Shown one piece after another: positions 4,524-31,163 of a stretch of DNA of 64,000 nucleotides. The translations under genes were made by a program, and so were the position numbers. This DNA is from an uncultured Eubacteriales bacterium. Its GTDB lineage: Bacteria > Bacillota > Clostridia > Christensenellales > CALVMC01. Positions within the stretch are counted from its first letter, which is position 1, and every line of letters starts with the position of its first letter. The stretch is taken from NCBI GenBank assembly GCA_949296455.1, contig CASFOZ010000003.1, forward strand, positions 83,767 to 147,766, given 5' to 3'. Under the pieces are notes generated by a model. That model made no database searches. It was not told where the DNA came from and saw only the letters and a list, made by a program, of their open reading frames with translations.

Positions 4524-5216
4524 TTAATATAGTTTTATCAGCTTATTTCCCGTTAAATCGCATGAGGTCAGAATATACTTTGTTCCGAACTTATCGACGA
4601 CCGATTGTGCCCTGCATTGCTTTCCGTGTAGATGACCGTAAACTACTTTTTCCACTCCGTATTGCCTTATGGTCATTACAAGTTCGGATGCGTTATAATT
4701 CACATCAAAAGGCGGGTAATGAATAAGTACTACGACGGTATCATCGGCTTCTTTTATTTTAACGGCTTCATCGAGTGCAAGTTTAAGTCTTCCGACTTCC
4801 CTTTTATATATTTTTATGTCGTCAGAAGAACTTTGTTTCGTAGGAATAGTCCATCCTCTTGTTCCGCAGAAAACGAAATTATTTATTTTTACCGCATTGT
4901 TTTGAAGAGGTATTATGCTATCTCCGCAGATATTTTTTACTTTATTAAGACTTGCCCACCAATAATCGTGGTTTCCCTTTATAATTATTTTTTTCCCGTT
5001 TAATTTTTCTATTTCATTCAAATCGGTTTTGGCTTCTTCGATATTCATAGCCCACGAAATATCGCCCGCAATAAGGACAACATCGTCATTTTTAACTTTG
5101 CTTTGCCAATCTTCTTTTATACGGTCGAAATGGCCTTCCCAATCGCCGCCGAAAACATCCATGGGTTTATCTGTGGAAAATGATAGGTGTAAATCACTTA
5201 TTGCGAAAACATTCAT
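4524..5216 (-). CDS. Calcineurin-like metallophosphoesterase
   Basis: DLH, GDIS, GNHD, HYPP, GHLH motifs. Confidence 0.9.
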   Translation of the reverse strand: MNVFAISDLHLSFSTDKPMDVFGGDWEGHFDRIKEDWQSKVKNDDVVLIAGDISWAMNIEEAKTDLNEIEKLNGKKIIIKGNHDYWWASLNKVKNICGDSIIPLQNNAVKINNFVFCGTRGWTIPTKQSSSDDIKIYKREVGRLKLALDEAVKIKEADDTVVVLIHYPPFDVNYNASELVMTIRQYGVEKVVYGHLHGKQCRAQSVVDKFGTKYILTSCDLTGNKLIKLY

Positions 5217-5231
5217 AATTTGATTATACCA
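5217..5231 (-). promoter_or_regulatory. Extended -10 promoter TGgTATAAT 6 nt before ATG (probable leaderless start)
   Basis: TGGTATAAT-caaatt-ATG; no SD. Confidence 0.6.
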
Positions 5232-5253
5232 CGACTTAAATTATTTAAAAAGC

Positions 5254-5280
5254 GAAAAGAGGGCTTTTGCCCTCCTTTCT
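5254..5280 (-). terminator. Probable intrinsic terminator after the Cys-rich gene
   Basis: gaggg-ctttt-g-ccctc stem-loop with T-rich flank on the minus strand. Confidence 0.5.
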
Positions 5281-5304
5281 TAAAATTTATACCTAATATT
5301 GCCC

Positions 5305-5952
5305 TTACCTGCAAGTCATATCCGAAGGGAACAGCGGTAAATCGAAGAAGCTGTCGCAAACTTCTTCTTTAAATTCCTGACAAGGCGGAATAAAACAGTA
5401 TCCGTAACTCGGAACAAGAAGTTCAACATCCATAACCACTTTCATAATTACCGTAGTGCAGCTTGTTATGCTGAAAGCATTACTGCCGGAATACACGCCT
5501 TCGGGACTGACTAAGTTAACAACTGCCTCGATTTCGTAAGGCATTACCGACGGCTGAGCAATATGTAATACTACATCCTTATTAACGGTTATAGTTCCGT
5601 TACCTTTACCCTCCGTTCCGTTAGCGTCTACAAAAACTACTTCTACGGGAATGATTACATCGCATCTGATTCTTGCACAACCGGAACGGTCAGTAAGTTT
5701 ATCTATTGTCATATTGGTAATCAAACCGTTTGACGAAGTGCTTTTTGCGCTTACAAACGTATAAGGTTCAACTAACCCTTGCGGTGTAATATTAGTTAAA
5801 GTAACTGTCTGACCGGTTAAAGTTTCTTGTTTTACACAGGCGTCGAAAACCTTTTTAGTTTGTATACACACTTTCTCGCATAAACCATTCAGAGGATTGC
5901 CGGTAATTAATCCGGGCATTCTATCAGGTCTCAAATTGTTTGAAAATGCCAT
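5305..5952 (-). CDS. Cys-rich hypothetical protein, candidate spore coat/exosporium protein
   Basis: Strong AAGGAGGTGA SD; CEKVCIQTKKVFDAC and YGYCFIPPC..C motifs; sigK-like promoter upstream. Confidence 0.55.
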   Translation of the reverse strand: MAFSNNLRPDRMPGLITGNPLNGLCEKVCIQTKKVFDACVKQETLTGQTVTLTNITPQGLVEPYTFVSAKSTSSNGLITNMTIDKLTDRSGCARIRCDVIIPVEVVFVDANGTEGKGNGTITVNKDVVLHIAQPSVMPYEIEAVVNLVSPEGVYSGSNAFSITSCTTVIMKVVMDVELLVPSYGYCFIPPCQEFKEEVCDSFFDLPLFPSDMTCR

Positions 5953-5982
5953 ATTTTCACCTCCTTGAAAACTATACTAATG

Positions 5983-6011
5983 TATATTATGTCACCGAAC
6001 ACTTAAATGTG
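5983..6011 (-). promoter_or_regulatory. SigK-type (mother-cell sporulation) promoter
   Basis: cACA-16 nt-CATAATATA matches the sigK consensus mACA-N16-CATAnnnTA. Confidence 0.6.
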
Positions 6012-6193
6012 ATAATATGACGGTTGTTATATGCAAATCGAAAGCGTAAATCAAAAACGTGAATATTAAATTCATAACGAATAATTATAATAACTATTTT
6101 GTAATTTTATATAAAGACGAAAAAAAATTAAAATAAAAATATTTAAATTTGGAATAATAAAAATATTTATTTGAATTTATCGGTTTTAAATGT

Positions 6194-6778
6194 TTAATTA
6201 ATTAAAATTTGTTCGATTCTGTCTAAAAGAAGATTTACCCCTTCTTTTTTCAAAGCAGATGTAACTATAATATTATCTGAACCTATTCGTAAAGCAGACG
6301 CAATATTCTGAACGGATTTTTTTATTGCTTCCTTTTTAAGTTTATCGGCTTTTGTCACAACGCAAGTAAAAGGAATATTATAGTGTGAAAGAAAATTTAT
6401 CATTTTAAAGTCGTTTTCGGAAGGTTCCCTTCTTATATCCAAAAGAAGAAATACGTTTTTAAGGTTTTTATTATTTATAAGATAAGCTTCTATCAAAGTA
6501 CGCCATTTGGCAATTTCGCCTGCCGGAGCTTTTGCAAAACCGTATCCCGGAAGGTCGACAAGTAAAAATTCTCCGTTTATATCGAAATAATTGACAAGCC
6601 TCGTCCTGCCCGGCGTCTGTGAAGTTTTTGCAAGATTTCTGTTATTTGTTATAAGATTTATAAGAGAACTTTTACCTACGTTACTTTTCCCGACAATTGC
6701 AATTTCCGACTTATTAAAGTCGGAAATTTTAGAAGGGTCGGCAACCGATATCAAAAATTGTGCTTTTTTTATTATCAT
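6194..6778 (-). CDS. engB: Ribosome biogenesis GTPase EngB/YsxC/YihA
   Basis: GKSNVGKSS, SQTPGRT, DLPGYG, TKADK; follows lon. Confidence 0.95.
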   Translation of the reverse strand: MIIKKAQFLISVADPSKISDFNKSEIAIVGKSNVGKSSLINLITNNRNLAKTSQTPGRTRLVNYFDINGEFLLVDLPGYGFAKAPAGEIAKWRTLIEAYLINNKNLKNVFLLLDIRREPSENDFKMINFLSHYNIPFTCVVTKADKLKKEAIKKSVQNIASALRIGSDNIIVTSALKKEGVNLLLDRIEQILIN

Positions 6779-9075
6779 ATTCTGTTAAGTGAATTTCTGA
6801 ACACTGTATTAATATTATCGGCATAAATAATATGCAACTGGCTCAATACCGATTTCGGAATTTTATCCATATCTTTTTGATTTTCTTCGGGAAGAATTAC
6901 CGTATCGATACCTGCTCTGTATGCTGCAAGTAATTTTTCTTTAAGACCGCCTATCGGAAGAACCTTTCCTCTCAAGGTAATTTCTCCCGTCATTGCAACA
7001 TTGCTTTTTATAGTTCTTCCGGTAAAGGCCGATAAAACGGCTGTTGCAATAGTAATACCTGCAGAAGGACCGTCTTTAGGCACTGCACCTTCGGGAACAT
7101 GAATATGTATATCGGTTTTTTCGAAATCTTTTTCGTCTATTCCGTAATCTTTAGAATTTGCTTTAATAAGAGAAATAGCCGTTCTTGCCGATTCTTTCAT
7201 TACATCTCCCAAATGGCCGGTAAGAATAATATCGCCTTTTCCGTTCATAAGAGTTACTTCTATCGAAAGTGTATCTCCGCCGAAACTCGTCCAAGCAAGA
7301 CCTGTTGCGCTTCCTACTTCGTCTTTACCGCTGACCTTGTTATAATCGTATAAGCGAACTCCTAATAGTTTGCCTAATTCCGTTTCGTCGATAGTAATAC
7401 TTTTAAGTCTCGGATTTTCTATAACCTTTCTTGCAATTTTTCTGCAAAGGCTTTTAACCTGTCTTTCAAGACCTCTGACTCCCGATTCTCTAGTATAATA
7501 GTTAATCATATCGTTTATTGCTTCATCGGTAAGGTTAATATCGTAATCTCCTAAACCGTGTTCTTCTTTTTGTTTCGGGAAAATAAAATGTTTCAATATT
7601 TCGGCTTTTTCTTCATAAGTATAACCCGTCATTTCTATAACTTCCATTCTGTCAAGAAGCGGAGGACTTACGGTTTGAAGAGTATTTGCCGTTGCAATAA
7701 ACAAAACTTTTGAAAGGTCAAAAGGAAGTTCCAGATAATTATCTCTGAAAGTTTTATTCTGTTCCGGGTCCAAAACCTCTAAAAGCGCACTCGAAGGGTC
7801 ACCTTTGATATCGCTGTTGATTTTATCGATTTCATCGAGCAGTATTACGGGGTTAACGCTCCCTGCGTTTTTTATGGCAGTGATAATTCTACCCGGCATC
7901 GAACCGATATAAGTTCTTCTGTGCCCCCTTATTTCAGCCTCGTCCTTAACTGCGCCTAGACTTATTCTCGTATACTTACGACCTAAAGCACGGGCAATGG
8001 ATTTTGCTATACTTGTTTTACCGATTCCGGGAGGGCCTGAAAGGCATAATATAGAACCTTTATTGGATTTTGCAAGCGCCCTTACCGAAAGATATTCCAA
8101 AATTCTTTCCTTTACCTTATCGATACCGTAATGGTCTTCGTTAAGAATATTTTTTGCCTTCTTGATATCGAAAGTATCTTCGGTTTCTATTCCCCAAGGA
8201 AGTTCGAAAACCAAATCGATATAATTTCTTAAAATACTTGCCTCAGCCGAAGCAGATTGCATTTTCTGTAACGACTTTATGTGTTTTAATATCTTTGCTT
8301 TATTTTCGTCGGTTGTTTTAAGAGAATTTGCTTTTTCTATAAGTTCTTCTTCATCTTCATCGACATCGCCGAGTTCTTCTCTAATAACTTTAAGCTGTTC
8401 TCTCAAATAAAAGTCCTTTTGATTTTTATTGACACGCTCATTTATTTTTTTGATTATGGTGCTGTCTATTTTAGCGATTTCAATTTCATTGACAAGAGCT
8501 GCGGCAACCATTTCAAGACGGATAAGCATATCTTCTTCGTCTAAAAATACCTGACGAGGAAAATTGTATAAGATTTCCGCTATTTTATTGGCTTTGGCAT
8601 TCGGACTTACCGTAGCCATAACGTTTTTATATTTATCTCTGCTTATTTTATCGGTTATTCCGGAAAGGTCGGTAAATAACTTTGAAATTTTTCTGTCAAG
8701 AGCTTCGAGTTCTATCTCGTTATCGCAAAAATATTCAAAAGGCAAAACCTTAGCCTTGTAAAAATCTCCCGAAGGATAACACTCGATAAGTCTTGCAGCA
8801 TAAACCCCTTCAAGCAAAACCCTTGCTACGTTTCCAGGAAGTTGTAATATGCTTTTAATCCTGCATACGGTACCGACATTTTCTATATTTGAAAATTCAA
8901 GTACTTCTTCTCCGTCGTTAATCTGCCCTGAAATAAATACATAGTCTTCGAGTCCGTGGGCATGAATAAGCGCCGCTACCGATTTTTTCCCTGAAATATC
9001 GAGATGGGCAACGGTATCCGGAAGTACTACAAAGTTTTTAATAGTAATTAAATCAAGTTCTTCTGTTTTAATCAT
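6775..9075 (-). CDS. lon: ATP-dependent Lon protease
   Basis: GPPGIGKT Walker A, LLDEIDK Walker B, PKDGPSAG catalytic Ser, GGLKEK catalytic Lys. Confidence 0.97.
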   Translation of the reverse strand: MIKTEELDLITIKNFVVLPDTVAHLDISGKKSVAALIHAHGLEDYVFISGQINDGEEVLEFSNIENVGTVCRIKSILQLPGNVARVLLEGVYAARLIECYPSGDFYKAKVLPFEYFCDNEIELEALDRKISKLFTDLSGITDKISRDKYKNVMATVSPNAKANKIAEILYNFPRQVFLDEEDMLIRLEMVAAALVNEIEIAKIDSTIIKKINERVNKNQKDFYLREQLKVIREELGDVDEDEEELIEKANSLKTTDENKAKILKHIKSLQKMQSASAEASILRNYIDLVFELPWGIETEDTFDIKKAKNILNEDHYGIDKVKERILEYLSVRALAKSNKGSILCLSGPPGIGKTSIAKSIARALGRKYTRISLGAVKDEAEIRGHRRTYIGSMPGRIITAIKNAGSVNPVILLDEIDKINSDIKGDPSSALLEVLDPEQNKTFRDNYLELPFDLSKVLFIATANTLQTVSPPLLDRMEVIEMTGYTYEEKAEILKHFIFPKQKEEHGLGDYDINLTDEAINDMINYYTRESGVRGLERQVKSLCRKIARKVIENPRLKSITIDETELGKLLGVRLYDYNKVSGKDEVGSATGLAWTSFGGDTLSIEVTLMNGKGDIILTGHLGDVMKESARTAISLIKANSKDYGIDEKDFEKTDIHIHVPEGAVPKDGPSAGITIATAVLSAFTGRTIKSNVAMTGEITLRGKVLPIGGLKEKLLAAYRAGIDTVILPEENQKDMDKIPKSVLSQLHIIYADNINTVFRNSLNRI

Positions 9076-9110
9076 AAACTAATTATAACGCAAACGAAAA
9101 ATTTTTGCAA
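9076..9110 (-). promoter_or_regulatory. SigA promoter of lon, probable leaderless transcript
   Basis: TTGCAA-17-TATAAT-tagttt-ATG; no SD. Confidence 0.65.
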
Positions 9111-9180
9111 TAGTAAGCTGAGTTTCTTTTAACAAAATTTACCTGTCGAACTTTATTTATTTAAACATAAACTTTTAAAA

Positions 9181-9210
9181 ATGAAAAAGCCTTTTTTAGG
9201 CTTCTTCATT
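9181..9210 (-). terminator. Probable terminator after peroxiredoxin
   Basis: atgaaaaagcct-tttt-t-aggcttcttcat imperfect inverted repeat. Confidence 0.45.
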
Positions 9211-9238
9211 TTAAATATTATATCTTATATTTTTACTC

Positions 9239-9910
9239 TTACTTCTTTTCCTTTTTAAAACACATAAACCAATCCAAACAATAAGTATCTGCGCTTTTAT
9301 TTTCCATTCTTTCCTTTGCCGTACCGCAACTGCTCGCAGTAGGAATTATAACATCGTCTCCGGGACGCCAATCGGCAGGAGTAGCGACATTATCTTTATC
9401 GGCTTTTTGAAGTGCAAGAATAATTCTTTTGATTTCATCGAAATTTCTTCCCGTAGAAAGCGGATAATATAATATTGTTCTGATTACCCCTTTCGGGTCG
9501 ATTACAAAAACAGCTCTTACCGCTTGTGTGTTTGATTGATTAGGTTGTATCATTCCGTATTTTTTTGCAACTTCCATACGGATATCTTCAATCAGAGGAA
9601 AGGTAACATTTATGTTCTTTTTATCTTTCCATTCAAGTTTCTGAATTTTTCTGAGCCATGCAATATGTGCATATAGCGAATCAACGGATAAGCCTACCAA
9701 TTGAACATTTAAAGCCTTGAATTCGTCTATCATAGAACCGAAAGTCATAAACTCTGTCGTGCAAACCGGTGTAAAGTCCGCAGGATGCGAAAATAAAATT
9801 ACCCATTTACCTTGAAAGTCGGAAGGAAATTTAATGTTTCCTTGCGTTGTTACTGCTTCGAATTCGGGTGCCTTATCCCCGATAAGCGGCATACGATTTA
9901 ATTCTTCCAT
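9239..9910 (-). CDS. Peroxiredoxin (AhpC/TSA family, PVCTTE / Prx6-like)
   Basis: FSHPADFTPVCTTE peroxidatic Cys motif, GRNFDEI, TPADW; start taken as ATG 9910 after GGAGG. Confidence 0.92.
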   Translation of the reverse strand: MEELNRMPLIGDKAPEFEAVTTQGNIKFPSDFQGKWVILFSHPADFTPVCTTEFMTFGSMIDEFKALNVQLVGLSVDSLYAHIAWLRKIQKLEWKDKKNINVTFPLIEDIRMEVAKKYGMIQPNQSNTQAVRAVFVIDPKGVIRTILYYPLSTGRNFDEIKRIILALQKADKDNVATPADWRPGDDVIIPTASSCGTAKERMENKSADTYCLDWFMCFKKEKK

Positions 9911-9920
9911 AATTACCTCC

Positions 9921-9979
9921 ATATTTAAGAATAATAATCATTCTTAAATATATGATATATTATCGGAATTTTTTGTCAA
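9921..9979 (-). promoter_or_regulatory. Peroxiredoxin promoter (TTGACA-16-TATCAT) with a 12-7-12 palindromic operator, Fur/PerR-like
   Basis: ATATTTAAGAAT-aataatc-ATTCTTAAATAT at 9921-9951, between the -10 and the SD. Confidence 0.65.
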
Positions 9980-10017
9980 TAATTTTACTATAAATTTTAA
10001 ATTTTATTTTTAATTAT

Positions 10018-10041
10018 AAAAAAAAGGCTTTCGCCTTTTTT
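10018..10041 (-). terminator. Intrinsic terminator (bidirectional type)
   Basis: A-tract-ggc-tttc-gcc-T-tract immediately after the stop codon. Confidence 0.7.
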
Positions 10042-10042
10042 A

Positions 10043-10843
10043 TTATAACAGGTTTTTTATTTCATTTTGAAAATGGGAAAGCACTATACCCGGTTCTTCC
10101 AAATCGTTAAGCCAACGCTTTAACCATTCAAGCGAAAGGTACCCTTTATATTTTAAATCGGAAAGAGCTTTAATGGCTTCCTTTAAAGGAACATCCCCTT
10201 TTCCGAGCAAAGTGTAAACAAGTTTTTCGTTTTTGTAAATGCTGTCTTTTATGTGAACGTATTTTACATATTCTCCGATATTGTCAAGAGTAAAACTAAC
10301 AGTTTCGTTGTTAAAACGGAAAGGATGATGAACATCCCATAATATACCTTTATTTTTGCTTTTACAATTTTCCATAAAACTTTTGGCAACGAAACTGTCG
10401 CATAAAGCTCCGTTTGTTTCAATAAGCGGAGTAACTTTTTTCTTTTTTCCGTATTCACAAAGTGTATTGTAAACTTCGAGCGCTTTTGCGATATCGCAAT
10501 CTTCTTTATCGATACTCTGAGTACAGAGAACTCTTACATAAGGAACCCCTAACTTTGAAGCGGTATCTATATACTCTTTGACTTCTTTTTCGGCATTTTC
10601 AGAATTACCTGGTTTAGCAAGTTCGGCAGCCGACGATAAAATGGATATTTCTATACCTGCATTTTTTAGTTTAGTTAAGGTATCGTTTAAATGTTCTTTA
10701 TCGAATTCTTTTATTTTAGGAGCGTAAATTTCATTGCCTACTCCTCTGATTTCTATACCGTTATATCCTAAATCCTTTGCTGCCGAAAAAATTTCATTAA
10801 AAGACCATTTAGGACAAGCTAAAGTAGAAAAAGCAATTTTCAT
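10043..10843 (-). CDS. Sugar-phosphate isomerase/epimerase family TIM-barrel protein (AP_endonuc_2)
   Basis: FSTLACP, GIEIRG, IET, WDVHH, VHIKD, LSLEW metal-binding pattern. Confidence 0.85.
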   Translation of the reverse strand: MKIAFSTLACPKWSFNEIFSAAKDLGYNGIEIRGVGNEIYAPKIKEFDKEHLNDTLTKLKNAGIEISILSSAAELAKPGNSENAEKEVKEYIDTASKLGVPYVRVLCTQSIDKEDCDIAKALEVYNTLCEYGKKKKVTPLIETNGALCDSFVAKSFMENCKSKNKGILWDVHHPFRFNNETVSFTLDNIGEYVKYVHIKDSIYKNEKLVYTLLGKGDVPLKEAIKALSDLKYKGYLSLEWLKRWLNDLEEPGIVLSHFQNEIKNLL

Positions 10844-10860
10844 AATAATTCCTCCTTAAA

Positions 10861-12522
10861 TTAAGCTGTTTCGATATTTGCGGCTTTTTGAAGATTAAAC
10901 TTTTCTATTGCCGCTTCACGCATTTTATATTTTTGTATTTTTCCTGCCGCATTCGTCGGAAAACTTGTAACGAATTCAACATATTTAGGCACTTTATGTC
11001 TTGCCATATGACTGAGTACGAACTGTTTGACTTCTTCTTCGGTCATACTTTCGCCCTTTTTCAAAATTATTGCAGCCATAACTTCTTCCCCGTACTGTTC
11101 GGATGGAACTCCAATAACCTGAACATCGGAAATTTTAGGATGAGTGTATAAAAATTCTTCGATTTCCTTAGGATAAATATTTTCTCCGCCTCTTATAATC
11201 ATATCTTTTATACGGCCTACGACTTTATAGTAACCGTGTTCGTCCACAGTACACAAATCGCCGGTATGAAGCCAACCGTCTTTATCGATAGCAAGAGCAG
11301 TCGCCTCAGGCATTTTATAATATCCTTTCATTATATTATACCCTCTCGCACAAAATTCACCGGGCATATTCGGAGCAAGCGTTTCGCCCGTTTCGGTGTC
11401 AACTATTTTACCTTCTATTCCGGGAAGCATTTTTCCTACGGTCTGAACCCTTCTTTCTATACTGTCGTCGGTTGAAGTTTGAGTACAAACAGGAGAAGCT
11501 TCCGTTTGTCCGTAAGCAATAGTTATTTCACTCATACCCATTTCGTCAATGGTCTGCTGCATTACTTTAACAGGACAAGGAGAACCTGCCATAATACCGG
11601 TACGCAGATTAAGTTTATATTTTTTGAAATCAGGATGTTCGAGCATAGCTATAAACATTGTAGGAACTCCGTGAAGAGCCGTACATTTTTCGTCCTGAAC
11701 TGCACCTAAAACATCAAGCGGTCTGAAATAATCGACAAGGACAATAGAAGTTGCGTGAGTCACTGCCGCCATAGTCGCAAGGACAAGGCCGAAGCAATGG
11801 AAAAGCGGAACGCATATACAAAGTTTGTCTTTATCCGTAAATTTCATACAGTCGCCTATACTCTTACCGTTATTGAGAATATTATAATGTGTAAGCATTA
11901 CGCCTTTTGGAAAGCCTGTCGTTCCGGAAGTATACTGAATATTAACTATATCGTCCTTATCGAGCGATAAGGTAATATTATTCAGTTCTTCGTCGGAAAT
12001 ATTCTTTCCGAAATACTTGATGTTTTCGAAAGGAAGCATTCCATTCGGTCTTAAATCCGTACCTGCAATTACAATTCTTTTCAAGAAAGGCAATTTTTCA
12101 TTTTCAATATATCCGTCTTTTGCGTCATCTATTTGAGGACAAAGTTCTCGTACTATTTCAACATAATTACTATCCTTGAATTTATCGAGCATAACGAGCA
12201 TTTTTGTATCGGATTGTCTTAAAAGATATTCAAGTTCAAAAACTTTATAATTGGTATTAACCGTAACAAGAACGGCTCCGATTTTTGCCGAAGCAAAAAG
12301 TATAATAAGCCATTCCGGAATATTGGTTGCCCAAATTGCGATATGGTCGCCTTTTTTGACACCGAGACCGAGCAGACCTTTAGCAACTTCGTTGCATTCG
12401 TCGTTAAACTCTTTCCAGGTACGACAGTAATTTCTTGTGTAGTGCTTAACTGCCGTATCGTCTCTATGCGACACAGCCAAATCGTTAAGAACCTTGCCTA
12501 ATGTATCGTTTATAAAATTCAT
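10861..12522 (-). CDS. AMP-binding acyl-CoA synthetase
   Basis: YTSGTTGFPKG, YGQTE, HTGD, GRIKDMIIRGGENIYP, GKIQK. Confidence 0.93.
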   Translation of the reverse strand: MNFINDTLGKVLNDLAVSHRDDTAVKHYTRNYCRTWKEFNDECNEVAKGLLGLGVKKGDHIAIWATNIPEWLIILFASAKIGAVLVTVNTNYKVFELEYLLRQSDTKMLVMLDKFKDSNYVEIVRELCPQIDDAKDGYIENEKLPFLKRIVIAGTDLRPNGMLPFENIKYFGKNISDEELNNITLSLDKDDIVNIQYTSGTTGFPKGVMLTHYNILNNGKSIGDCMKFTDKDKLCICVPLFHCFGLVLATMAAVTHATSIVLVDYFRPLDVLGAVQDEKCTALHGVPTMFIAMLEHPDFKKYKLNLRTGIMAGSPCPVKVMQQTIDEMGMSEITIAYGQTEASPVCTQTSTDDSIERRVQTVGKMLPGIEGKIVDTETGETLAPNMPGEFCARGYNIMKGYYKMPEATALAIDKDGWLHTGDLCTVDEHGYYKVVGRIKDMIIRGGENIYPKEIEEFLYTHPKISDVQVIGVPSEQYGEEVMAAIILKKGESMTEEEVKQFVLSHMARHKVPKYVEFVTSFPTNAAGKIQKYKMREAAIEKFNLQKAANIETA

Positions 12523-12804
12523 TGGTCCGCTCTCTCCTTTTTATATTTTTTTGATAATAGCACAAATTTCGAAAATCTGCAATTGAAAATAATATAATAA
12601 TATAACAATAATTTATAAATTTAATAATTATTTAATTAAAAAATTATTTAAATAAAAAATTTAAATCAAATTCAATCTGACTTTATAAACTTTACTGATT
12701 TTATAAATTTTTAAAAAGATGGAAAGCAATCAGCAAATTTAATAATTTCAATATGATATTTTAGATTTATTTTTAGTCTTTAATCATAACATCAATTAAC
12801 AAAT

Positions 12805-12830
12805 AAAAAAAGTCCTTTCGGACTTTTTTT
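12805..12830 (-). terminator. Intrinsic terminator after clpX
   Basis: aaaaaaagtcc-tttc-ggacttttttt. Confidence 0.75.
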
Positions 12831-14103: not shown

Positions 14104-14120
14104 AAAACAGATAACTACCT

Positions 14121-14702: not shown

Positions 14703-14736
14703 TTTCGTACTCCCTGATATAATATGCTTGTCCATA

Positions 14737-16140: not shown

Positions 16141-16174
16141 ACGAATTTACAAGACAAAAAACAAAGAAAAAAAT

Positions 16175-16198
16175 AAAAAGGTCTTGAAAGACCTTTTT
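16175..16198 (-). terminator. Intrinsic terminator after purL
   Basis: aaaaaggtct-tgaa-agaccttttt. Confidence 0.75.
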
Positions 16199-19941: not shown

Positions 19942-19979
19942 ATTATTCTCCGTTATAATTCCGTTTTGTCCTGAATCGA

Positions 19980-21239: not shown

Positions 21240-21253
21240 AGTATTCTCCAAAA

Positions 21254-22789: not shown

Positions 22790-22800
22790 ATTATCCTCCG

Positions 22801-23382
22801 TTATTCCTCACATAATTTTTTTACTGCTTCCGGCAGAAGTCTATGTTCTAATTCGAGTACTCTCTCCTGTAAAATTTCCGGCGTATCGGTATCGTAAACC
22901 GGAACTGTTTTTTGCATAATTATTTCACCCGTATCGGCATTTTCGTCTACATAATGAACGGTAGCGCCGCTGACGGTATCTCCGCTTTCTATAACCGATT
23001 TATGAACTCTTATTCCGTAATAACCTTTTCCGCAATGTTTGGGAATAAGCGAGGGATGTATATTTATGATTTTTCTTTCGAAAGTTTTAACTAATTTTTC
23101 GGTTAAAATATTAAGGTAACCTGCAAGCACAATTAAATCAATATCATATTCCTTCAAAACCTTCAATATTTCATCGTCCATCGCATCAAGCGAAGGATAA
23201 TTCTCTTTCGGAAAAACTTTATACGGAATATTTTCTTTTATAGCTCTTTCGATTGCGTAAATCCCGTTTTTACTTGCTATTACCAAAACAACCTTACCGT
23301 TTATTTCGCCTCTTTTTATGCTGTCGATAACCGATTGCATATCGGTTCCCCCGCCTGAAACGAATATGGCTATTCTTTTCAT
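22801..23382 (-). CDS. purN: Phosphoribosylglycinamide formyltransferase
   Basis: SGGGTD, LAGY, INIHPSL, GATVH, DTGEII. Confidence 0.95.
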
Positions 23383-24395
23383 AAAATCACGCCTTCGCCT
23401 TTTACGGTTTTTCCTATGATATAAGCCTTTTCGCCTATATCGTTAAGGAATTTACAAACATCTTTTGCGTCTTTTTTAGAAACGGCAGCCACCATACCTA
23501 TACCCATATTGAATGTATTGTAAATTTTCTCATTATCGATAGAGGCTTTTTTCTGCATATATTTGAACACAGCCGGCACTTCGTAAGAATCGATATCGAT
23601 TTTTGCCGCTATTCCTTTAGGTAAAATTCGCGGTATATTTTCAATAAAACCTCCGCCAGTAATATGAGCAAGACCTTTAATATCGAATTTATCGATAAGA
23701 CTAAGAATACTTTTTACATAAATTTTGGTAGGTTCGAGCAAAATATCTGCGGGAGCAGCATTGAGTTCGGGAATAAATTTTAAAAGTTCCTTTTTATCTT
23801 CTCCGAAAAGCTTTCTTACAAGAGAATACCCGTTACTGTGTATTCCGCTCGAAGCAAGTCCCACAAGCACATCGTCTTCAGAAATTTTTTTTCCGTTGAT
23901 TACCTTATTTCTTTTTGCTATACCTACGCTGAACCCTGCCATATCGTAATCGTCCTGACCGTAAAAACCCGGCATTTCGGCTGTTTCTCCGCCAATGAGT
24001 GCGCAACCTGCTTGTACACATCCTTCCGAAACGCCTTTTACTATGAGGGCAATTTTTTCGGGTATTAACTTGCCTGTTGCAATATAATCTAAAAACAAAA
24101 GAGGCTTAGCTCCCTGACACACGATATCGTTTACGCACATAGCCACACAGTCTATACCTACCGTATCGTGCTTATCCAAAATAAAAGCATATTTCAGTTT
24201 AGTACCGACTCCGTCGGTTCCCGCAACAAGAACGTCGGAGTCCGGTTTATCGCCAAGAGCGTAAAAACCCCCGAAACTGCCGATATCGCCTATAACGTTT
24301 TTGTCATAGGTTTTTTTAACGTATTCTTTCATAAGACTTACGGCTTTATAACCTGCTTCAACATCGACTCCTGCCGATTTATAATCAATACCCAT
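23379..24395 (-). CDS. purM: AIR synthase
   Basis: YKSAGVD, TDGVGTK, GGETAEMPG, HSNGYS, HITGGG, FNMGIG. Confidence 0.97.
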   Translation of the reverse strand: MGIDYKSAGVDVEAGYKAVSLMKEYVKKTYDKNVIGDIGSFGGFYALGDKPDSDVLVAGTDGVGTKLKYAFILDKHDTVGIDCVAMCVNDIVCQGAKPLLFLDYIATGKLIPEKIALIVKGVSEGCVQAGCALIGGETAEMPGFYGQDDYDMAGFSVGIAKRNKVINGKKISEDDVLVGLASSGIHSNGYSLVRKLFGEDKKELLKFIPELNAAPADILLEPTKIYVKSILSLIDKFDIKGLAHITGGGFIENIPRILPKGIAAKIDIDSYEVPAVFKYMQKKASIDNEKIYNTFNMGIGMVAAVSKKDAKDVCKFLNDIGEKAYIIGKTVKGEGVIL

Positions 24396-24428
24396 ATCGT
24401 CTCCCTTTTCCAAAATTATGTAAATCCT

Positions 24429-24926
24429 TTAATTTTTACTTAATTCGTTTTGAAACGCTTTATCGTCCGCAACGATTTTTTCATTCATTTTAATCTTATA
24501 ATCCTTGAGTTTTTCGGCAAGTTTTTTGTCTCCCAAAGCGAGTATCTGAACGGCAAGTAATGCTGCGTTCTCGGCTCCGTTTATGGCAACCGTCGCAACC
24601 GGAATTCCTGAAGGCATCTGAACGGTTGAAAGCAAACTGTCCAACCCGTCCATAGTAGAAGATTTTACCGGAATACCTATAACCGGCAATATCGTGTTGG
24701 ACGCAAGAACACCTGCAAGATGAGCGGCTTTTCCTGCCGCTGCAATAATTACGCCGAATCCGTTTTTTATCGCATTTTTTGCAAAGTCGTGAGCAATATC
24801 CGGCGTGCGATGCGCAGACATAATTCTGCATTCCGTTTCTATACCGAATTTTATCAGCGTATCACGGGCAGGCTTTACTGCATCGTAATCGCTTTTACTT
24901 CCCATAATTATCGCAACTTTATACAT
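24429..24926 (-). CDS. purE: N5-CAIR mutase PurE
   Basis: MGSKSD, SAHRTP, AAHLAG, VQMPSGIPVATV. Confidence 0.96.
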   Translation of the reverse strand: MYKVAIIMGSKSDYDAVKPARDTLIKFGIETECRIMSAHRTPDIAHDFAKNAIKNGFGVIIAAAGKAAHLAGVLASNTILPVIGIPVKSSTMDGLDSLLSTVQMPSGIPVATVAINGAENAALLAVQILALGDKKLAEKLKDYKIKMNEKIVADDKAFQNELSKN

Positions 24927-24940
24927 ATTCTTTTACCTCT

Positions 24941-26131
24941 CTAAAGTGACTGAGCTATTTTTTCGATAAACTGTAAAGAATTCAATCCTTTTACCTGAGC
25001 GTTTCCGCTATATAAAGAAATTAAATCTTTTGTCATATAACCGCTTTCGATTGTGGAAATTGTGGCTTTTTCGAGTTTATCCGCAAAATCGGAAAGTGCT
25101 TTGATTTTATCCAATTCCCCTCTCTTTCTGAGCGCACCCGTCCAAGCAAAAATCGTAGCAACCGGATTTGTTGAAGTTTCTTCGCCTTTCAAATGCTTAT
25201 AATAATGTCTTGTAACGGTTCCGTGGGCTGCTTCGTATTCGAACTTTCCGTCAGGTGAAACCAAAACAGAGGTCATCATAGCAAGAGACCCGAAGGCTGT
25301 CGCTACCATATCGCTCATAACGTCACCGTCGTAATTCTTGCAAGCCCAAATCATACCGCCAGAACTTCTCATAACTCTTGCGACAATATCATCGATAAGC
25401 GAATAGAAATATTCGATACCTGCTTTTTTGAATTTATCGGAATATTCTTTAATAAAAATTTCATTGAAAATATCTTTGAATGTATGATCGTAAATTTTGC
25501 TTATAGTGTCTTTTGCGCCGAACCATAAATCTGTTTTTTTATCGAGTGCATAATTCATACAGCTTCTTGCAAAACTTGCAATACTTTTTTCGGTATTGAA
25601 CATACCCATAACTACGCCGGGACCTTTCTCGAAATCGAAAACGGGAATACTGTTTTCGCCGTTGATTGTAAGTTCCGCCTTGTCCCCTTTTTTTGCGCTG
25701 TATTCCTTACAGCTGTAAATATCACCGTAAGCATGTCTTGCTATAATTATCGGTTTTTTCCAATTAGGAACGAGAGGTTTAATTCCTTCGCACAATACAG
25801 GACTTCTGAAAACCGTTCCGTCAAGAGCCGCCCTTAATGTTCCGTTAGGGCTTTTATACATTCTTTTAAGACTATATTCCGTTACACGGTCGGCATTTGG
25901 AGTTATAGTTGCGCATTTTACGCCGACTCCGTATTTTTTAATCGCCTCAGCCGCTTCCACTGTGACTTTGTCGTCTGTTTCGTCACGGTTTTTAAGTCCT
26001 AAATCATAGTATTCGGTTTTTAAATTGACGAAAGGTTTGATTAAATAATCTTTAATCCACTGCCATAAAATTCTTGTCATCTCATCGCCGTCTAATTCAA
26101 CAAGCGGCATTTTCATTTCTATTTTTTCCAT
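24941..26131 (-). CDS. icd: NADP-dependent isocitrate dehydrogenase (eukaryote-like type)
   Basis: [41 protein letters not shown]. Confidence 0.95.
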
Positions 26132-26166
26132 AGTAAGATTTTAACATAATGAAGATAAAAAATCAA
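26132..26166 (-). promoter_or_regulatory. SigA promoter of icd-pur, probable leaderless transcript
   Basis: TTGATT-17-TAAAAT (with extended TG)-cttact-ATG; no SD. Confidence 0.65.
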
Positions 26167-26199
26167 CAACACAACATAATGTAATTAATTATTTAATAT

Positions 26200-26223
26200 A
26201 AAAAAAGCGGCGGCGCCGCTTTT
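26200..26223 (-). terminator. Intrinsic terminator after ddl
   Basis: aaaaaaagcgg-cggcg-ccgcttt. Confidence 0.65.
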
Positions 26224-27340
26224 ATTTTTCTTTTATGAATTTAGGATTTATATTCAGTATGTTAGAATCATAACCGTGCAAAAGTTCTTCTTTTTCTTTA
26301 TTTCTGTAAATGCAGTTATCTATAAGTAAATTAATTAAATCCTTAAAGGTTATACCCTGCGGTTCGAACAAATAATATGCAAGAGAACCGGGTATGGAAT
26401 TTACTTCGTTAACGAATACGTTATCGTCTTTATCTACAATAAAGTCAATTCTTGCAATACCGCCGAGTTTCAGACCTTTATATATATCCATAGTATAGCG
26501 GCGTATAACTTTTGCAATTTCTACTGAAATTTTTGCAGGACATTCTCTTTTAGGACTGTTTTCATTTTTTGAACCTTGAATATATTTATCTTTGAATGTT
26601 AAAAACTCATTGACTTTTACCGGCTTTTCTATACAGCTTATAAATACATTCTCCCTACAAGCAAATGCGGCGCAGTTACATTCGGTTATGTTTTCCAGAG
26701 CCTTTTCCAAAATTACCGTTTCATCGTACATGAACGCCAGTTCCAGCCCCTTTTCCAATTCGCTCTTATCCCGTGAAAAGGTTATTCCTATACTCGAACC
26801 TAATTTTGCAGGTTTAACTATAATAGGATAATCGAGAGATTTTTCTATCTTTTTTATCACTGTATTTTTATTCTTTTCGTAAGCTTTTTTCTCCGCTTCT
26901 ACAAAATCGATAACCGGCAAACCCATGTTAATAAAAAGTTTTTTTTGAAGTACTTTATCCATAGTAACGGCACTCGAAGCAACATCGCTTGATATATACG
27001 GCAATCTGTTTATTTCGAGATATCCTTGCAGACTTCCGTCCTCCCCGAGTCCGCCGTGTGCCGCTAAAAGGCAAACATCTATCTTCTTGTAGAAGGAAAT
27101 TTTTTTGCCTTTCAAAGTATAAATTTTATTTCCTTTTATAATACATTCGCTAAAATTTTTAATATTGAAATCCGAATATATAGCGAGTGAATTTTGTTTA
27201 GGAATATAAAATTTATCTTCTTTAATATAAACGGGAATCGCAGTGTATTTTTTGTCTATGTTTTCCATTACCTGTGCGGCGGTTATCACGGACACATCGT
27301 GTTCGCAAGATAACCCTCCGTAAATTACAGCAATATTCAT
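26222..27340 (-). CDS. ddl: D-alanine-D-alanine ligase family protein
   Basis: YGGLSCEHDVS, HGGLGEDG, MDK, KPAKLGSSIG, omega loop FKDKY, RIDF, NEVNSIPG. Confidence 0.92.
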   Translation of the reverse strand: MNIAVIYGGLSCEHDVSVITAAQVMENIDKKYTAIPVYIKEDKFYIPKQNSLAIYSDFNIKNFSECIIKGNKIYTLKGKKISFYKKIDVCLLAAHGGLGEDGSLQGYLEINRLPYISSDVASSAVTMDKVLQKKLFINMGLPVIDFVEAEKKAYEKNKNTVIKKIEKSLDYPIIVKPAKLGSSIGITFSRDKSELEKGLELAFMYDETVILEKALENITECNCAAFACRENVFISCIEKPVKVNEFLTFKDKYIQGSKNENSPKRECPAKISVEIAKVIRRYTMDIYKGLKLGGIARIDFIVDKDDNVFVNEVNSIPGSLAYYLFEPQGITFKDLINLLIDNCIYRNKEKEELLHGYDSNILNINPKFIKEK

Positions 27341-27351
27341 TTTTACCTCCG

Positions 27352-28941
27352 CTAAATTTCGTCATAATTATCGGGTAAATCATTTTCTATTAAAACCGTA
27401 TCGCCGGCTTTAAGAATATTTTTAAACTCGCTTTTCACCTCTTCAAGTGAGTTTTTAATTATAATATTTTCAACATCGAATTTTTCTTCAATAAGAGCGT
27501 TATAAATAGGTTTTGTTCGGTTTTTACCTATTAAAACGACACAGGAACAAACTTTTGCCATTTTTTTGCCTATTTCGTAATTTGTATCGTAATGCTTAAA
27601 ACCCTGCTCGACAATACCCGGAGTAACGATAATTTTTCTTCCTTCGAAAAGATTAAGACAATCCAATGCGGAATTGAATCCGTCGCTGTTAGAATTGAAA
27701 CTGTCGTCGATAACGCATATATCGTTATCTGCGTCGATAAGTTCCATACGGTGCGGTACGGGCTTCAGAAATTTTATAGCATTTACTATGTTTTCGTTTT
27801 TTATTCCTATTTTATGCGCAGCAGCTGCAGACACGGCAATATTCAGAACATTATGTAATCCTATTAATTTTGTTCTGCAAAATAAACTTTCATCTTCAAT
27901 ATGTAAAATGAATTCGCTGCCCGTCTTTGTTACGGTAATCCGGTCTGCGTAAACATCGGCTTTATTTTTTATCGAAACTCCGACCTTGTTCCCTTCATAA
28001 CACTTATAAATTTCATTTGCATAAGGACTGTCGATATTTATAATAAGCGTACCGTTTGACGGTAACATATCGGCTATTTTTTTCTTTTCGTTCACTATAT
28101 TTTCCTGTGTTTCGAAGCTTTCCAAATGCTGACTGTTTATACCTGTAAGTATTCCGTATGTAGGTTTGACAAGGTTCATAAGTTCCTCTATATCGCCTTT
28201 GTGTCGTGCGCCCATTTCGGCTATAAAAAACTCGGTATCGCTTTTTAAATCGGAAACCGTCTTACATATACCCATAGGAGTATTGTAACTTTCGGGCGTT
28301 GAAAGTACGTTGCGTTCTTCTGAAATCATAGCGTTGAGTATGTTTTTAACACCGGTTTTTCCGTATGAACCCGTAATACCTATTTTTATTGCAGAACTTT
28401 CATTTAAAGTTTTTTCGCACTTTTCAATGTAACAGCTTTTGATATAATTTTCCAAAGGCTCACATAAATTTACCGCTATCAAAAAATACAACGGAACAAA
28501 AAAAGCGAGTATAGGCGCAAAGACAGAAATAAAATCCGCATCCGTACTAATCAGTGAAATTACGGAAAATACAACGAAATATATTAAAAGAATTTCCACG
28601 AACATTACAACAAAAAGTCTTTTGATTCTGTTAGTGATTTTAAAAGGTTTTTTACCGCTGTAACTTTTGGAAAAGAATGCAAGATACACACAGCATATTC
28701 CGAATATTACCCAATAAAAATAAACCGCATATACCCTGTCGGAAATTATACATAGAAAACTTGTAATCAAAGAAAGCACGGTAAGAAGCAAGAAGACGAA
28801 ATTGAATTTTTCAAAATAAGTCTTATCCTTCACACTGAAATCAGGTTTGTATCCGTTAAGCTGTAAAGTGTAAACATATTGCTTTGAAGTTATTAAAACT
28901 AAAATCGAAAAAAACAAAGCAAGTAGAAAATTAAGCAACAT
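27352..28941 (-). CDS. murF: MurF-family ligase with N-terminal multi-pass membrane domain
   Basis: GITGSYGKT, SYNTPMG, EMGARH, HRME, DDSFNSN, ENDLPD; ~160 N-terminal residues with several hydrophobic helices; start revised to ATG 28941 after GGAGG. Confidence 0.85.
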   Translation of the reverse strand: MLLNFLLALFFSILVLITSKQYVYTLQLNGYKPDFSVKDKTYFEKFNFVFLLLTVLSLITSFLCIISDRVYAVYFYWVIFGICCVYLAFFSKSYSGKKPFKITNRIKRLFVVMFVEILLIYFVVFSVISLISTDADFISVFAPILAFFVPLYFLIAVNLCEPLENYIKSCYIEKCEKTLNESSAIKIGITGSYGKTGVKNILNAMISEERNVLSTPESYNTPMGICKTVSDLKSDTEFFIAEMGARHKGDIEELMNLVKPTYGILTGINSQHLESFETQENIVNEKKKIADMLPSNGTLIINIDSPYANEIYKCYEGNKVGVSIKNKADVYADRITVTKTGSEFILHIEDESLFCRTKLIGLHNVLNIAVSAAAAHKIGIKNENIVNAIKFLKPVPHRMELIDADNDICVIDDSFNSNSDGFNSALDCLNLFEGRKIIVTPGIVEQGFKHYDTNYEIGKKMAKVCSCVVLIGKNRTKPIYNALIEEKFDVENIIIKNSLEEVKSEFKNILKAGDTVLIENDLPDNYDEI

Positions 28942-28943
28942 AA

Positions 28944-29630
28944 TTAACCCTCCGCAAATTTTTGAAGTATAATGGTAAAGTCGCTTAAACATTCTATGTA
29001 ACAAAAGTGCGAACCGTGAAAAATAATTAATGCAGAATCCGGAATTTTTTCTTCCATAATTTTTGCCATATATAAAGGCGTGTCTTTGTCCTTATCGCCC
29101 CATATAAGAAGAACGGGAATATTTATTTCAGAAAGCAACGGCGTTAAATCTTCGTTGACGACATTAACGAAGGTTTTTTTCATTACATCGCTTAAAGCAT
29201 TGTAATCCTGAGAACCGGTTTTAAGCGTTATATTGAATTTTTTGAAAAATTTATAAGCGCCTACTTTTATCTTGTAACTCAAACCTCTTTTCGGTAATAC
29301 TCCTGCGCTGTCTGTAAGCAACATTCTTTTTATGTATGGAAAATTCTGAGAAGCGAGTTTTATTGCCACTCTGCCCCCGAAAGAATGTGCGCAAACAGTG
29401 AGATTTTTCATGTCGTAAAACTCAATAATTTCTTTTACCGCTTCTACATAATCATCGAGACAAAGAGGATTTTCGGGATGTTCCGAATCTCCGAATCCGT
29501 AAAAGTCCAATAAAGTTATTCTGTGATTTTGAATATTTCGGGCAACGCCCGTAAAACTGTCGATAGAGCCGCCCCAACCGTGCAAAAAAAGAATGTCGTC
29601 TCCCGAACCGAATTGTATATGATTTAAAAT
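28944..29630 (-). CDS. Alpha/beta-fold hydrolase (probable ATT start at 29630)
   Basis: FLHGWGG oxyanion loop, GFGDS, AHSFGG nucleophile, WGDKD, GSHF; frame stays open upstream of TTG 29585 through ILNHIQFGSGDDILFLHGWGG. Confidence 0.85.
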   Translation of the reverse strand: MLNHIQFGSGDDILFLHGWGGSIDSFTGVARNIQNHRITLLDFYGFGDSEHPENPLCLDDYVEAVKEIIEFYDMKNLTVCAHSFGGRVAIKLASQNFPYIKRMLLTDSAGVLPKRGLSYKIKVGAYKFFKKFNITLKTGSQDYNALSDVMKKTFVNVVNEDLTPLLSEINIPVLLIWGDKDKDTPLYMAKIMEEKIPDSALIIFHGSHFCYIECLSDFTIILQKFAEG

Positions 29631-29641
29631 TAAAATTCACC

Positions 29642-30079
29642 TCAAAGCTCAGCCATCATTACGAGCGCAGTTTTTTTATCTTTATAGTAATTCTTTCGCT
29701 CCGAAATAACTTTGAAGCCGAAACTTCGGTATAAATTTATAGCGCAGATATTGTCTTCCCGTACTTCGAGAAATATTTTTTTTACATTTGATTTTTTAAT
29801 CAAATCAAACCCTTCTTTCATCAAAAGTTTAGCGCAGCCTTGTCTTCTGAAATTTTCCCCGACCGCTATCGAAAGTATTTCCGCCTCGTCTTTTACAATA
29901 CTTAAAACTATATAGCCTGTTATATCGGTATGATTAACGGATTTCAGAATTTTTATATGTGCAAGTTTATAAAGGTCTTTAAATCCTTTTATTCCGAACG
30001 AATCGGAAATAGAATCGTCGCATATTTTACTTATTTTGCCTAAATCTTTTTCTCTAATTTCTTTTACTGTAAAATTCAC
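29642..30079 (-). CDS. rimI: RimI-like GNAT N-acetyltransferase
   Basis: IAV..FRRQGCA, LEVREDN, LYRSFGF, RKNYY; follows tsaB. Confidence 0.85.
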   Translation of the reverse strand: MNFTVKEIREKDLGKISKICDDSISDSFGIKGFKDLYKLAHIKILKSVNHTDITGYIVLSIVKDEAEILSIAVGENFRRQGCAKLLMKEGFDLIKKSNVKKIFLEVREDNICAINLYRSFGFKVISERKNYYKDKKTALVMMAEL

Positions 30080-30663
30080 CTTTCAAGCTCCCTTTCCGCC
30101 TGAGACTTTTTATAATAAGACGGAACCGCATAATCAGTGAATTCCTTGCGGGATATTTTATATTCCGAAAGTTCTATTATATTCTCTTTTTTATAAAATT
30201 CTTTTTGTTTTAATATTATATCTTTATCGTAATTTATGTCTTTTTCAGTATATTCGCCGGCTTTAATTTTGTGCAAAGTTGATTTTTCAAATTCCGCACC
30301 GTAAAAGTTACCGTTAAGACAATCTATGAATACTTTGTAATCATATCCCTTAATACGGTCGAATGCCGAAAGCGAAAATGAATCAAGCTCTATTATCTTC
30401 TTTCCTGTCGCAAATGCGAATGCGTTTATCGTACATACGCCTAGCCTTATTCCCGTGAAAGAGCCGGGACCTGTATTTACCGCAAAATAATCGATATCGA
30501 AAAGTTTCAGAGAACTTTTATTCAATATCTCTTCAATGGCAGGAAGCAAAATAGCGTTGTGTTTTTTTAATTCATTTTCGAATGTTTTAAAATAAATTCC
30601 CTTTTGGCTCTTTAATCCTACAAGAAGCATTTCAAAGGCGCTGTCGACTGCAAGTATATTCAT
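30076..30663 (-). CDS. tsaB: tRNA t6A biosynthesis protein TsaB
   Basis: ILAVDS, GPGSFTGIR motif. Confidence 0.9.
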   Translation of the reverse strand: MNILAVDSAFEMLLVGLKSQKGIYFKTFENELKKHNAILLPAIEEILNKSSLKLFDIDYFAVNTGPGSFTGIRLGVCTINAFAFATGKKIIELDSFSLSAFDRIKGYDYKVFIDCLNGNFYGAEFEKSTLHKIKAGEYTEKDINYDKDIILKQKEFYKKENIIELSEYKISRKEFTDYAVPSYYKKSQAERELER

Positions 30664-31076
30664 TATAAAGTCACTCCGTTTATTTCTATTTCTCTTCTAT
30701 CGTGCGGAAGTATTTTAATTTTTACCGAAATAATTTTTCCTTTAAGATTTTTAAACTTATTCCACTCGATTATACAGACTGCGTTTTCGTAAAGGTATTG
30801 TCTGAGCCCCAACTCATAGACATCTTCTTCATTTACTATTCTGTATAAATCGAAATGATTCACTTTAAATTTCCCGAAATATTCTTTTAAATAAGTATAA
30901 GTAGGACTTGTAACGGTTTCCTTGATATTAAGACCTTTGCAAATCCCCTTAGCAAGCAATGTTTTGCCGGCTCCCAAATCCCCATCGAGAAGAATAATTT
31001 CGCCGCCTTTAAGTTTGGATGCGATTTTTTCTCCCAATTGCAATGTATCATTTTCATTTTCGCAGAAAAATTTCAT
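30663..31076 (-). CDS. tsaE: tRNA t6A biosynthesis ATPase TsaE
   Basis: GDLGAGKT, SPTY, HFDLYR, IIEW. Confidence 0.95.
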   Translation of the reverse strand: MKFFCENENDTLQLGEKIASKLKGGEIILLDGDLGAGKTLLAKGICKGLNIKETVTSPTYTYLKEYFGKFKVNHFDLYRIVNEEDVYELGLRQYLYENAVCIIEWNKFKNLKGKIISVKIKILPHDRREIEINGVTL

Positions 31077-31111
31077 GAATCAATTATAACCCTAAGTAAA
31101 TAATTTAGCAA
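31077..31111 (-). promoter_or_regulatory. SigA promoter of the tsaE operon, probable leaderless transcript
   Basis: TTGCTA-17-TATAAT-tgattc-ATG; no SD. Confidence 0.65.
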
Positions 31112-31159: not shown

Positions 31160-31163
31160 TAGA

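Follow-up and report, generated by a model that had tools for sequence, protein, structure and literature searches.

Four genes on the minus strand of the analyzed DNA (the window, a 64-kb stretch at G000:C3:83767-147766), coding for a metallophosphoesterase, Lon, Icd and TsaE, carry a -10 promoter hexamer exactly 6 nucleotides (nt) upstream of their ATG start codon. Genome-wide counts and a comparison with the sister species mark this layout, -10-N6-ATG, as a real, selected and recurrent class in the genome to which the window belongs (G000; 1.385 Mb in 19 contigs, 36% GC, estimated to be 95% complete). The explanation that we favor, with good confidence, is that these sites are promoters of the sigma-A type abutting the ATG, whose mRNAs would be leaderless and would form a minority class in a genome that uses Shine-Dalgarno (SD) sequences. 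The four genes of the window are very probably expressed in this manner.

Predicted promoter-abutting start codons in the window

The four sites had been proposed in a first-pass annotation of this DNA, and they are borne out by direct reading of the window. In the following list and throughout, the gap is the number of nucleotides between the -10 hexamer and the start codon.

5231-5223, minus strand: TGg-TATAAT, extended -10 of the phosphoesterase gene, followed by the 6-nt gap caaatt (5222-5217) and the ATG (5216-5214)
4524..5216, minus strand: metallophosphoesterase coding sequence, 230 amino acids; residues 1-198 align to positions 1-190 of the Pfam profile Metallophos
9110-9105, minus strand: TTGCAA, -35 of lon, followed after 17 nt by TATAAT (9087-9082), the gap tagttt and the ATG (9075-9073); 10 of 12 consensus matches
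6775..9075, minus strand: lon coding sequence, 766 amino acids (Pfam)
26166-26161, minus strand: TTGATT, -35 of icd, followed after 17 nt by TGt-TAAAAT (26143-26138), the gap cttact and the ATG (26131-26129); 9 of 12 consensus matches plus the TG
24941..26131, minus strand: icd coding sequence, 396 amino acids (Pfam)
31111-31106, minus strand: TTGCTA, -35 of tsaE, followed after 17 nt by TATAAT (31088-31083), the gap tgattc and the ATG (31076-31074); 10 of 12 consensus matches
30663..31076, minus strand: tsaE coding sequence, 137 amino acids (Pfam)

For the phosphoesterase gene the motif stands as annotated, and position 5228, given as its beginning, is the first base of the hexamer and not of the TG, which starts at 5231. 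The claimed lack of an SD also holds: a scan of positions -18 to -4 (15 nt) upstream of each of the four ATGs found no SD core, and the four genes are without a ribosome-binding site. The -10 box sits where an SD would be, and the gap is 6 nt and the start codon ATG in all four cases. An independent consensus promoter scan lists the promoters of lon, icd and tsaE; that of the phosphoesterase gene, which is an extended -10 only, is absent from the list.

The identities of the genes were confirmed by Pfam, with profiles that align from residues 1-10 in all four proteins. Orthologues in up to 30 relatives align from residues 1-9, and those of Icd and the phosphoesterase from residue 1. None of the four genes has an upstream in-frame start, and none has an SD-led downstream start outside the conserved domain; tsaE alone has one inside it, a TTG at codon 40 within the TsaE domain. 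In the phosphoesterase, residues 8-10 form a DxH sequence, which we take to be the metal-binding motif, and a later start is therefore not possible in this gene. By these alignments, the start codons of the four genes are sound.

Transcription by RNA polymerase begins about 7 nt downstream of the -10 hexamer, and 70S ribosomes can bind a 5'-terminal AUG without an SD (PMC3160421, PMC6431027, bioRxiv 10.1101/193490; these and the other articles cited here are represented by excerpts). At this distance, a 6-nt gap places +1 on the A of the ATG. In the proposed mechanism, the four sites would be housekeeping promoters (sigma-A/sigma-70 type) from which RNA polymerase is predicted to initiate at the A of the ATG or at most one base away from it. 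The transcripts of the phosphoesterase gene, lon-ysxC, icd (possibly extending into the pur genes) and tsaE-tsaB-rimI and beyond would have neither a 5' leader nor a ribosome-binding site, and their translation would proceed by direct binding of 70S ribosomes to the 5'-terminal AUG, as described for leaderless mRNAs of Escherichia coli.

Genome-wide enrichment of the layout

The layout was counted across G000 upstream of open reading frames (ORFs) of at least 100 codons, of which 1067 non-overlapping ones, each taken from its first ATG, GTG or TTG, cover 91% of the genome. A stricter hexamer, matching TATAAT at no fewer than five of six positions, lies at gap 6 before 32 first-ATG starts, compared with 10.1 ± 3.3 (largest 24) when the 60 nt preceding each of the 820 first-ATG genes were shuffled 200 times with dinucleotides preserved. 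The -10 motif is thus enriched genome-wide at this spacing (z = 6.6). The looser pattern TAnnnT-N6-ATG, which the first-pass annotation had put forward for such a count, is enriched as well, only weakly (47 against 32 ± 5.3 shuffled; z = 2.8), and the signal needs either the stricter hexamer or the requirement of a -35 element or TGn.

Of 1058 starts, 14 have an exact TATAAT at gap 6 and 10 have one at gap 7, with one to four cases at each of the gaps 1-5 and 8-10. Independently of the gene calls, TAWAAT-Nk-ATG at the head of an ORF of at least 100 codons that lacks an earlier in-frame start gives 28 cases at k = 6, 11 at k = 7 and 1-9 at each of the other values of k between 0 and 15. The values k = 0, 3, 9, 12 and 15 represent same-frame controls, which share the reading-frame bias caused by in-frame TAA.

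Altogether, 36 first starts have the stricter hexamer at gap 6, and 32 of these are ATG. A -35 element (at least four of six matches to TTGACA, 16-18 nt upstream of the -10) accompanies 21 of the 36 and a TGn accompanies 10, so that 26 have at least one of the two. Gap 6 is the fullest bin for -10 boxes supported in this way, with at most 15 in any other bin over gaps 0-30. Support was found for 9 of 16 hexamers at gap 7 and for one to three at each of the gaps 0-5 and 8-10. Sites with a first ATG, a gap of 6 or 7 and either a -35 or TGn were taken as strong candidates; G000 has 33, of which 30 are first in their transcription unit by a crude rule.

Some raw matches at gap 6 or 7 were discarded as false, among them the following three. 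C3+127388 has a GTG start followed two codons downstream by an SD-led ATG, C12-20338 has an SD-led TTG ten codons downstream, and the TTG of C3-31228 lies within a hairpin.

Conservation of hexamers and spacing in the sister species

Only one other genome, G001, belongs to the same family as G000. It represents a sister species of the same genus, with 89.7% nucleotide identity over 387 kb aligned (first 400 kb of the largest G001 contig). In the 1.418 Mb of G001 that were compared, orthologues were found for all 33 strong sites of G000. The gap profile of G001 is the same (41 hexamers at gap 6, 26 of them supported), although, within one genus, it does not constitute an independent sample. The differences between the two genomes are distributed over the sites as follows:

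-10 hexamer: 2 of 198 positions
-35 hexamer: 4 of 198
TGn: 0 of 26
ATG: 0 of 99
Spacer between -35 and -10: 47 of 533
Gap between -10 and ATG: 24 of 205 (11.7%)
Sequence 5' of the -35: 106 of 820
Codons 2-4: 22 of 297

The hexamers thus differ at 6 of 396 positions and the flanks at 177 of 1558 (Fisher P = 6e-12). The length of the gap is kept in 30 of the 33 sites, though its sequence drifts at the rate of an unconstrained flank. This combination of a free gap sequence and a fixed gap length fits the distance from a promoter to +1, and not a sequence-specific translation element next to the ATG. Exceptions in G001 include C3-5212, which loses the hexamer, and C10-33239, which gains 2 nt in the gap.

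In the phosphoesterase gene of G001 the promoter reads TGc-TATAAT, and the gap of 6 is kept with one substitution. At lon, both hexamers and both spacings are kept, and the differences fall on five spacer positions, one base of the gap and the stretch 5' of the -35. The icd site is identical save for one T inserted in the gap, which becomes 7 nt long. At tsaE, both hexamers and the gap length of 6 are kept while three of the six gap bases are changed. The comparison indicates that the hexamers and their distance to the ATG are under purifying selection. Constrained hexamers and spacing around a free gap sequence form a clean comparative footprint, which is about the best evidence for leaderless starts that sequence alone can offer.

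Alternative explanations

Several points weigh against interpreting the sites as leaderless starts. The ORFs and their first starts were called by a crude rule of our own and not by a trained gene finder, with a scope of genes of at least 100 codons, and the conservation test is one comparison with one close relative. In a genome this rich in AT, any single site could be due to chance. Gap 7 taken alone does not exceed the shuffle expectation (12 versus 10.0), the -35 of the phosphoesterase gene is poor (3 of 6 matches), and the consensus scan of region 24800-31400 returned 24 promoter-like matches where 23.2 are expected in shuffled sequence. A second scanned region gave 27 matches versus 17.1 expected, and the scan by itself is no evidence. 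Extra promoters further upstream may also give leadered transcripts of the same genes; such additional promoters are usual for the leaderless candidates of C. phytofermentans (PMC5171806).

The chance level of promoter-like matches in this DNA is also what would be expected if the hexamers were AT-rich look-alikes of -10 boxes, with transcription starting further upstream and SD-independent translation from an unstructured, A/U-rich leader. The weak enrichment of the loose TAnnnT (z = 2.8) points in the same direction, and the 163 nt of intergenic DNA upstream of lon could hold another promoter. We nevertheless regard this explanation as improbable. An A/U-rich enhancer needs neither a -35 at 16-18 nt nor a TGn, yet 26 of the 36 gap-6 hexamers have one. 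Near-zero divergence is confined to the hexamers, whereas the 6-nt stretch adjoining the ATG diverges at a neutral-looking 11.7%. In addition, two genes of the window have terminator-like hairpins 20-36 nt upstream of their promoter elements, leaving no room for another promoter:

5254..5279, minus strand: terminator-like hairpin of 11 pairs followed by a T-run, with about 20 nt between its end and the phosphoesterase -10
26203..26223, minus strand: terminator-like hairpin of 9 pairs after ddl, 36 nt before the icd -35

The gene upstream of the phosphoesterase gene (5305-5952) is closed off by the hairpin at 5279-5254, so that a promoter for the phosphoesterase gene has to lie no more than about 35 nt from its ATG.

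Within the preferred explanation of promoter-abutting, leaderless starts, the size of the class can be estimated in several ways. The excess over neighbouring gaps amounts to about 38 genes with the stricter hexamer and about 43 with TAnnnT at first-ATG starts, and the class size of 33-43 genes corresponds to 3-4% of the 1058 ORFs. Of the 1058, 859 have a start within 60 codons that carries an SD of 4 nt or longer. The SD core peaks sharply 5-8 nt before starts, and the 3' end of the 16S rRNA has the canonical anti-SD CACCTCCTTT. As a share of transcription units, the class makes up no less than 5% on a count of all 630 ORFs that crudely qualify as unit-leading, and perhaps 6-8% if the number of units per gene resembles that of S. 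pyogenes, a value extrapolated from the operon numbers in the excerpt of PMC6431027.

From four cases within about 26 kb, the first-pass annotation had inferred that the lineage relies on leaderless initiation as a major mode for its housekeeping operons. The count is correct and lies above the genome average (four sites per 25.9 kb versus 33 per 1385 kb; Poisson P = 0.004, post hoc), although the same four sites in the whole 64-kb window are unremarkable (P = 0.07). The inference of a major mode is overstated and not supported, with 3-4% of the genes in the class, an SD in 859 of 1058 ORFs and an intact anti-SD. A default use of leaderless initiation comparable to that of Actinobacteria or Deinococcus, which the local density and the dominance of gap 6 (26 supported boxes versus at most 15) might suggest, is very unlikely and already contradicted by the counts, with 33 strong cases and an excess of about 38-43 genes. 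No ribosomal-protein or typically high-expression gene is present among the 26 annotated ones. By a crude count, the class covers about 5-8% of operons versus 25-50% in group C of GeneMarkS-2 (bioRxiv 10.1101/193490), and a share of the latter kind was not found in G000.

It is also very unlikely that the start codons are mis-assigned, with real starts that are downstream and SD-led and promoters that give short ordinary leaders: this does apply to some raw matches (C3+127388 with its GTG, and C12-20338), and in 3 of the 33 strong candidates a start led by an SD of 5 nt or longer lies within 60 codons, but the four genes of the window offer no such start save the tsaE TTG inside the domain, family profiles and orthologues align from the first residues, and the phosphoesterase has its presumed metal-binding DxH at residues 8-10.

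Comparison with known systems

The layout of the four sites is that of the 'TA-led' genes of Zheng et al. 2011 (PMC3160421), in which TANNNT or TAtaaT about 12 nt upstream of the start codon was read as a -10 with the transcript starting at the start codon; Lactococcus lactis is the example shown for this class. In the excerpt of that article, the 56 of 209 Firmicutes genomes with a detected class have a mean of 4.2% of genes (range 2.4-16.6%), and the frequency in G000 matches this mean. The bias of leaderless genes toward information processing reported there is likewise seen in the G000 set. Relative to what the excerpt describes, only the genome is new, coming from an uncultured Clostridia lineage whose family contains one further species.

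Leaderless transcripts are minority classes in streptococci and other clostridia too, where the transcription start sites (TSS) were measured, whereas those in G000 are predicted. They account for about 2-3% of transcripts in three solventogenic clostridia (PMC9045289), 4% of intergenic sense TSS in C. phytofermentans (PMC5171806) and 8.6-9% of mRNAs in three streptococci (PMC6431027). In the streptococci, the leaderless state is mostly conserved between species, which corresponds to the 30 of 33 gap lengths kept between G000 and its sister species. Measured against such figures, the leaderless share of G000 is ordinary for the phylum.

Group C of GeneMarkS-2 (Actinobacteria, Deinococcus-Thermus) likewise has a Pribnow box 6-8 nt from operon-first starts, and its dual model of promoter-abutting and SD-led starts resembles G000 (bioRxiv 10.1101/193490). 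G000 differs from this group in that about 5-8% of its transcription units are concerned and the SD dominates. According to the excerpt, 36 of 1064 Firmicutes belong to group C, and G000 is expected to fall into group A. What is seen here is a known mechanism in a new genome, which leaves the picture of translation initiation in Firmicutes unchanged and adds one more lineage to the known pattern. In practical terms, gene finders that expect an SD may mis-place about 35-45 starts in G000 and in related genomes of uncultured Clostridia, and promoter prediction in such metagenome-assembled genomes can make use of the -10-N6-ATG rule.

Distribution among other families of the order

At least 30 families make up the order, and their Lon proteins share 39-51% identity with that of G000. 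No convincing promoter-abutting start was found for lon in 25 loci from other families (one truncated, one partial), and in most loci whose start can be read, a TATAAT lies 20-35 nt upstream and an SD comes after it. For icd, TATAAT-N6-ATG is present in 1 of 28 loci (G008), the remainder being SD-led or unclear. A -10 at gap 6 precedes the ATG at the aligned N-terminus of tsaE in 3 of 27 loci (G011, G016 and G023), with two to three more that are marginal (G008 with gap 8, G028 with gap 7 and GTG, G017 with TTG). For the phosphoesterase gene, the layout was seen in 4 of 26 loci (G011, G020 and G025 with gap 6, G028 with gap 7), and G008 is marginal with gap 8.

Samples of 400 kb were inspected for two of these genomes. 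In G011 (48.7% GC), 10 hexamers are positioned at gap 6, 8 of them supported, among 318 first starts. G023 (43.7% GC) displays a weak peak among 324 first starts, with five hexamers at gap 6 (three supported) and eight at gap 7 (four supported). The attribution of leaderless starts to 'this lineage' thus stands for their presence in G000 and not for their peculiarity, as other families share the tsaE and phosphoesterase layout and G011 has a gap-6 peak of its own.

By parsimony, lon, and probably icd, would have lost a short SD leader toward this genus, a polarity inferred without a tree. Tentatively, and with less than even confidence, the leaderless state could be fluid and gene-specific in the order. 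The tsaE and phosphoesterase genes would then be leaderless across several families, while lon and icd would have lost an SD leader of 20-35 nt in a small-genome genus; the set would be biased to low-abundance enzymes of DNA repair and recombination and of RNA modification and ribosome biogenesis, and, in the course of genome reduction, leader loss would perhaps fix either a co-translated stress set or expression that is low and SD-independent. If true, this would contradict the proposal of Zheng et al. 2011 that leaderless genes generally tend to be lost.

Over a large part of the order (relatives G002-G030), the genes keep the same arrangement. Judged from the match coordinates, the phosphoesterase gene lies beside lon in at least nine relatives (for example G023, G003, G007, G010 and G005), and at least nine have icd no more than a few kb from tsaE (for example G011, G023, G030 and G008). 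The tsaE match of G028 (G028:C22:18960-19352) contains one in-frame TGA, for which a recoded stop, a broken gene and a sequencing error are candidate explanations; its sole promoter-abutting start is the GTG.

Genes carrying the layout

A search with NCBIfam profiles of the 29 strong candidates outside the window gave a family match for 22, a marginal match for two and none for five. In 18 of the 22, the first eight positions of the profile align within the first 14 residues of the protein. Including the four genes of the window, 26 of the 33 strong candidates can be named. The NCBIfam matches are:

DNA repair, recombination or uptake: RecF, DinB, AddB, RuvC, Ogt, dGTPase, ComEC-like MBL protein
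RNA modification or ribosome biogenesis: TadA, TtcA-like protein, RlmD, Der
Metabolism and other, first part: RimK-family ligase, IspE, PaaK-like ligase, YlbJ, CysK, TrxB
Metabolism and other, second part: FAD enzyme, ABC ATPase, HAD hydrolase, AroA, NadD-YqeK

No gene for a ribosomal protein or a similarly abundant product occurs among the 26 named. Enzymes of DNA repair and recombination and of RNA modification and ribosome biogenesis, TsaE counted with the latter, appear prominent among the 33, which is a post hoc impression. Strong promoter-abutting starts also precede two genes for large proteins with no real family match, G000:C2:3711-7154 (1147 amino acids) and G000:C2:55556-58354 (932 amino acids). 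Their marginal matches are to a TonB-like stretch and to the CIS12 contractile-injection family.

Surroundings of the four genes

All four genes had been described as operon-leading. This is upheld for lon and tsaE and probably for icd; the phosphoesterase gene looks monocistronic. The genes downstream of lon and tsaE are:

6194-6778, minus strand: ysxC/engB, downstream of lon with a 4-nt overlap
30076-30663 and 29642-30079, minus strand: tsaB and rimI, downstream of tsaE and followed by a hydrolase gene, murF and ddl

The upstream neighbour of tsaE is divergent and encodes an S-component of the energy-coupling factor (ECF) type (31344-32201, plus strand).

Upstream of lon, a block of about 22 nt, AGGTAAATTTTGTTAAAAGAAA (9117-9140, minus strand), located 5' of the -35, is identical in G000 and G001, and 6 of the 10 positions between the block and the -35 differ. 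It is a possible operator at which a lon regulator would bind. A CtsR operator was considered and rejected, as a loose two-heptad pattern of the CtsR type, allowing at most one mismatch, does not match the block. In the window this pattern occurs at chance level (7 matches versus 4.9 expected); a ctsR gene is present in the genome.

Downstream of the phosphoesterase gene come a terminator-like hairpin (4482-4462) and then, after 238 nt, mraZ-rsmH, an ORF without a family match (2318-2944) and a gene for a penicillin-binding protein of the spoVD type. From this arrangement, the phosphoesterase gene is probably monocistronic.

The hairpin between ddl and icd (26203-26223) scores as a terminator on both strands, with a T-run on either side. 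Downstream of icd, purE-purM-purN-purH lie on the same strand, starting 14 nt after its end (24926-26131, minus strand). If co-transcribed, this arrangement would place a gene of the tricarboxylic acid cycle at the head of a purine operon.

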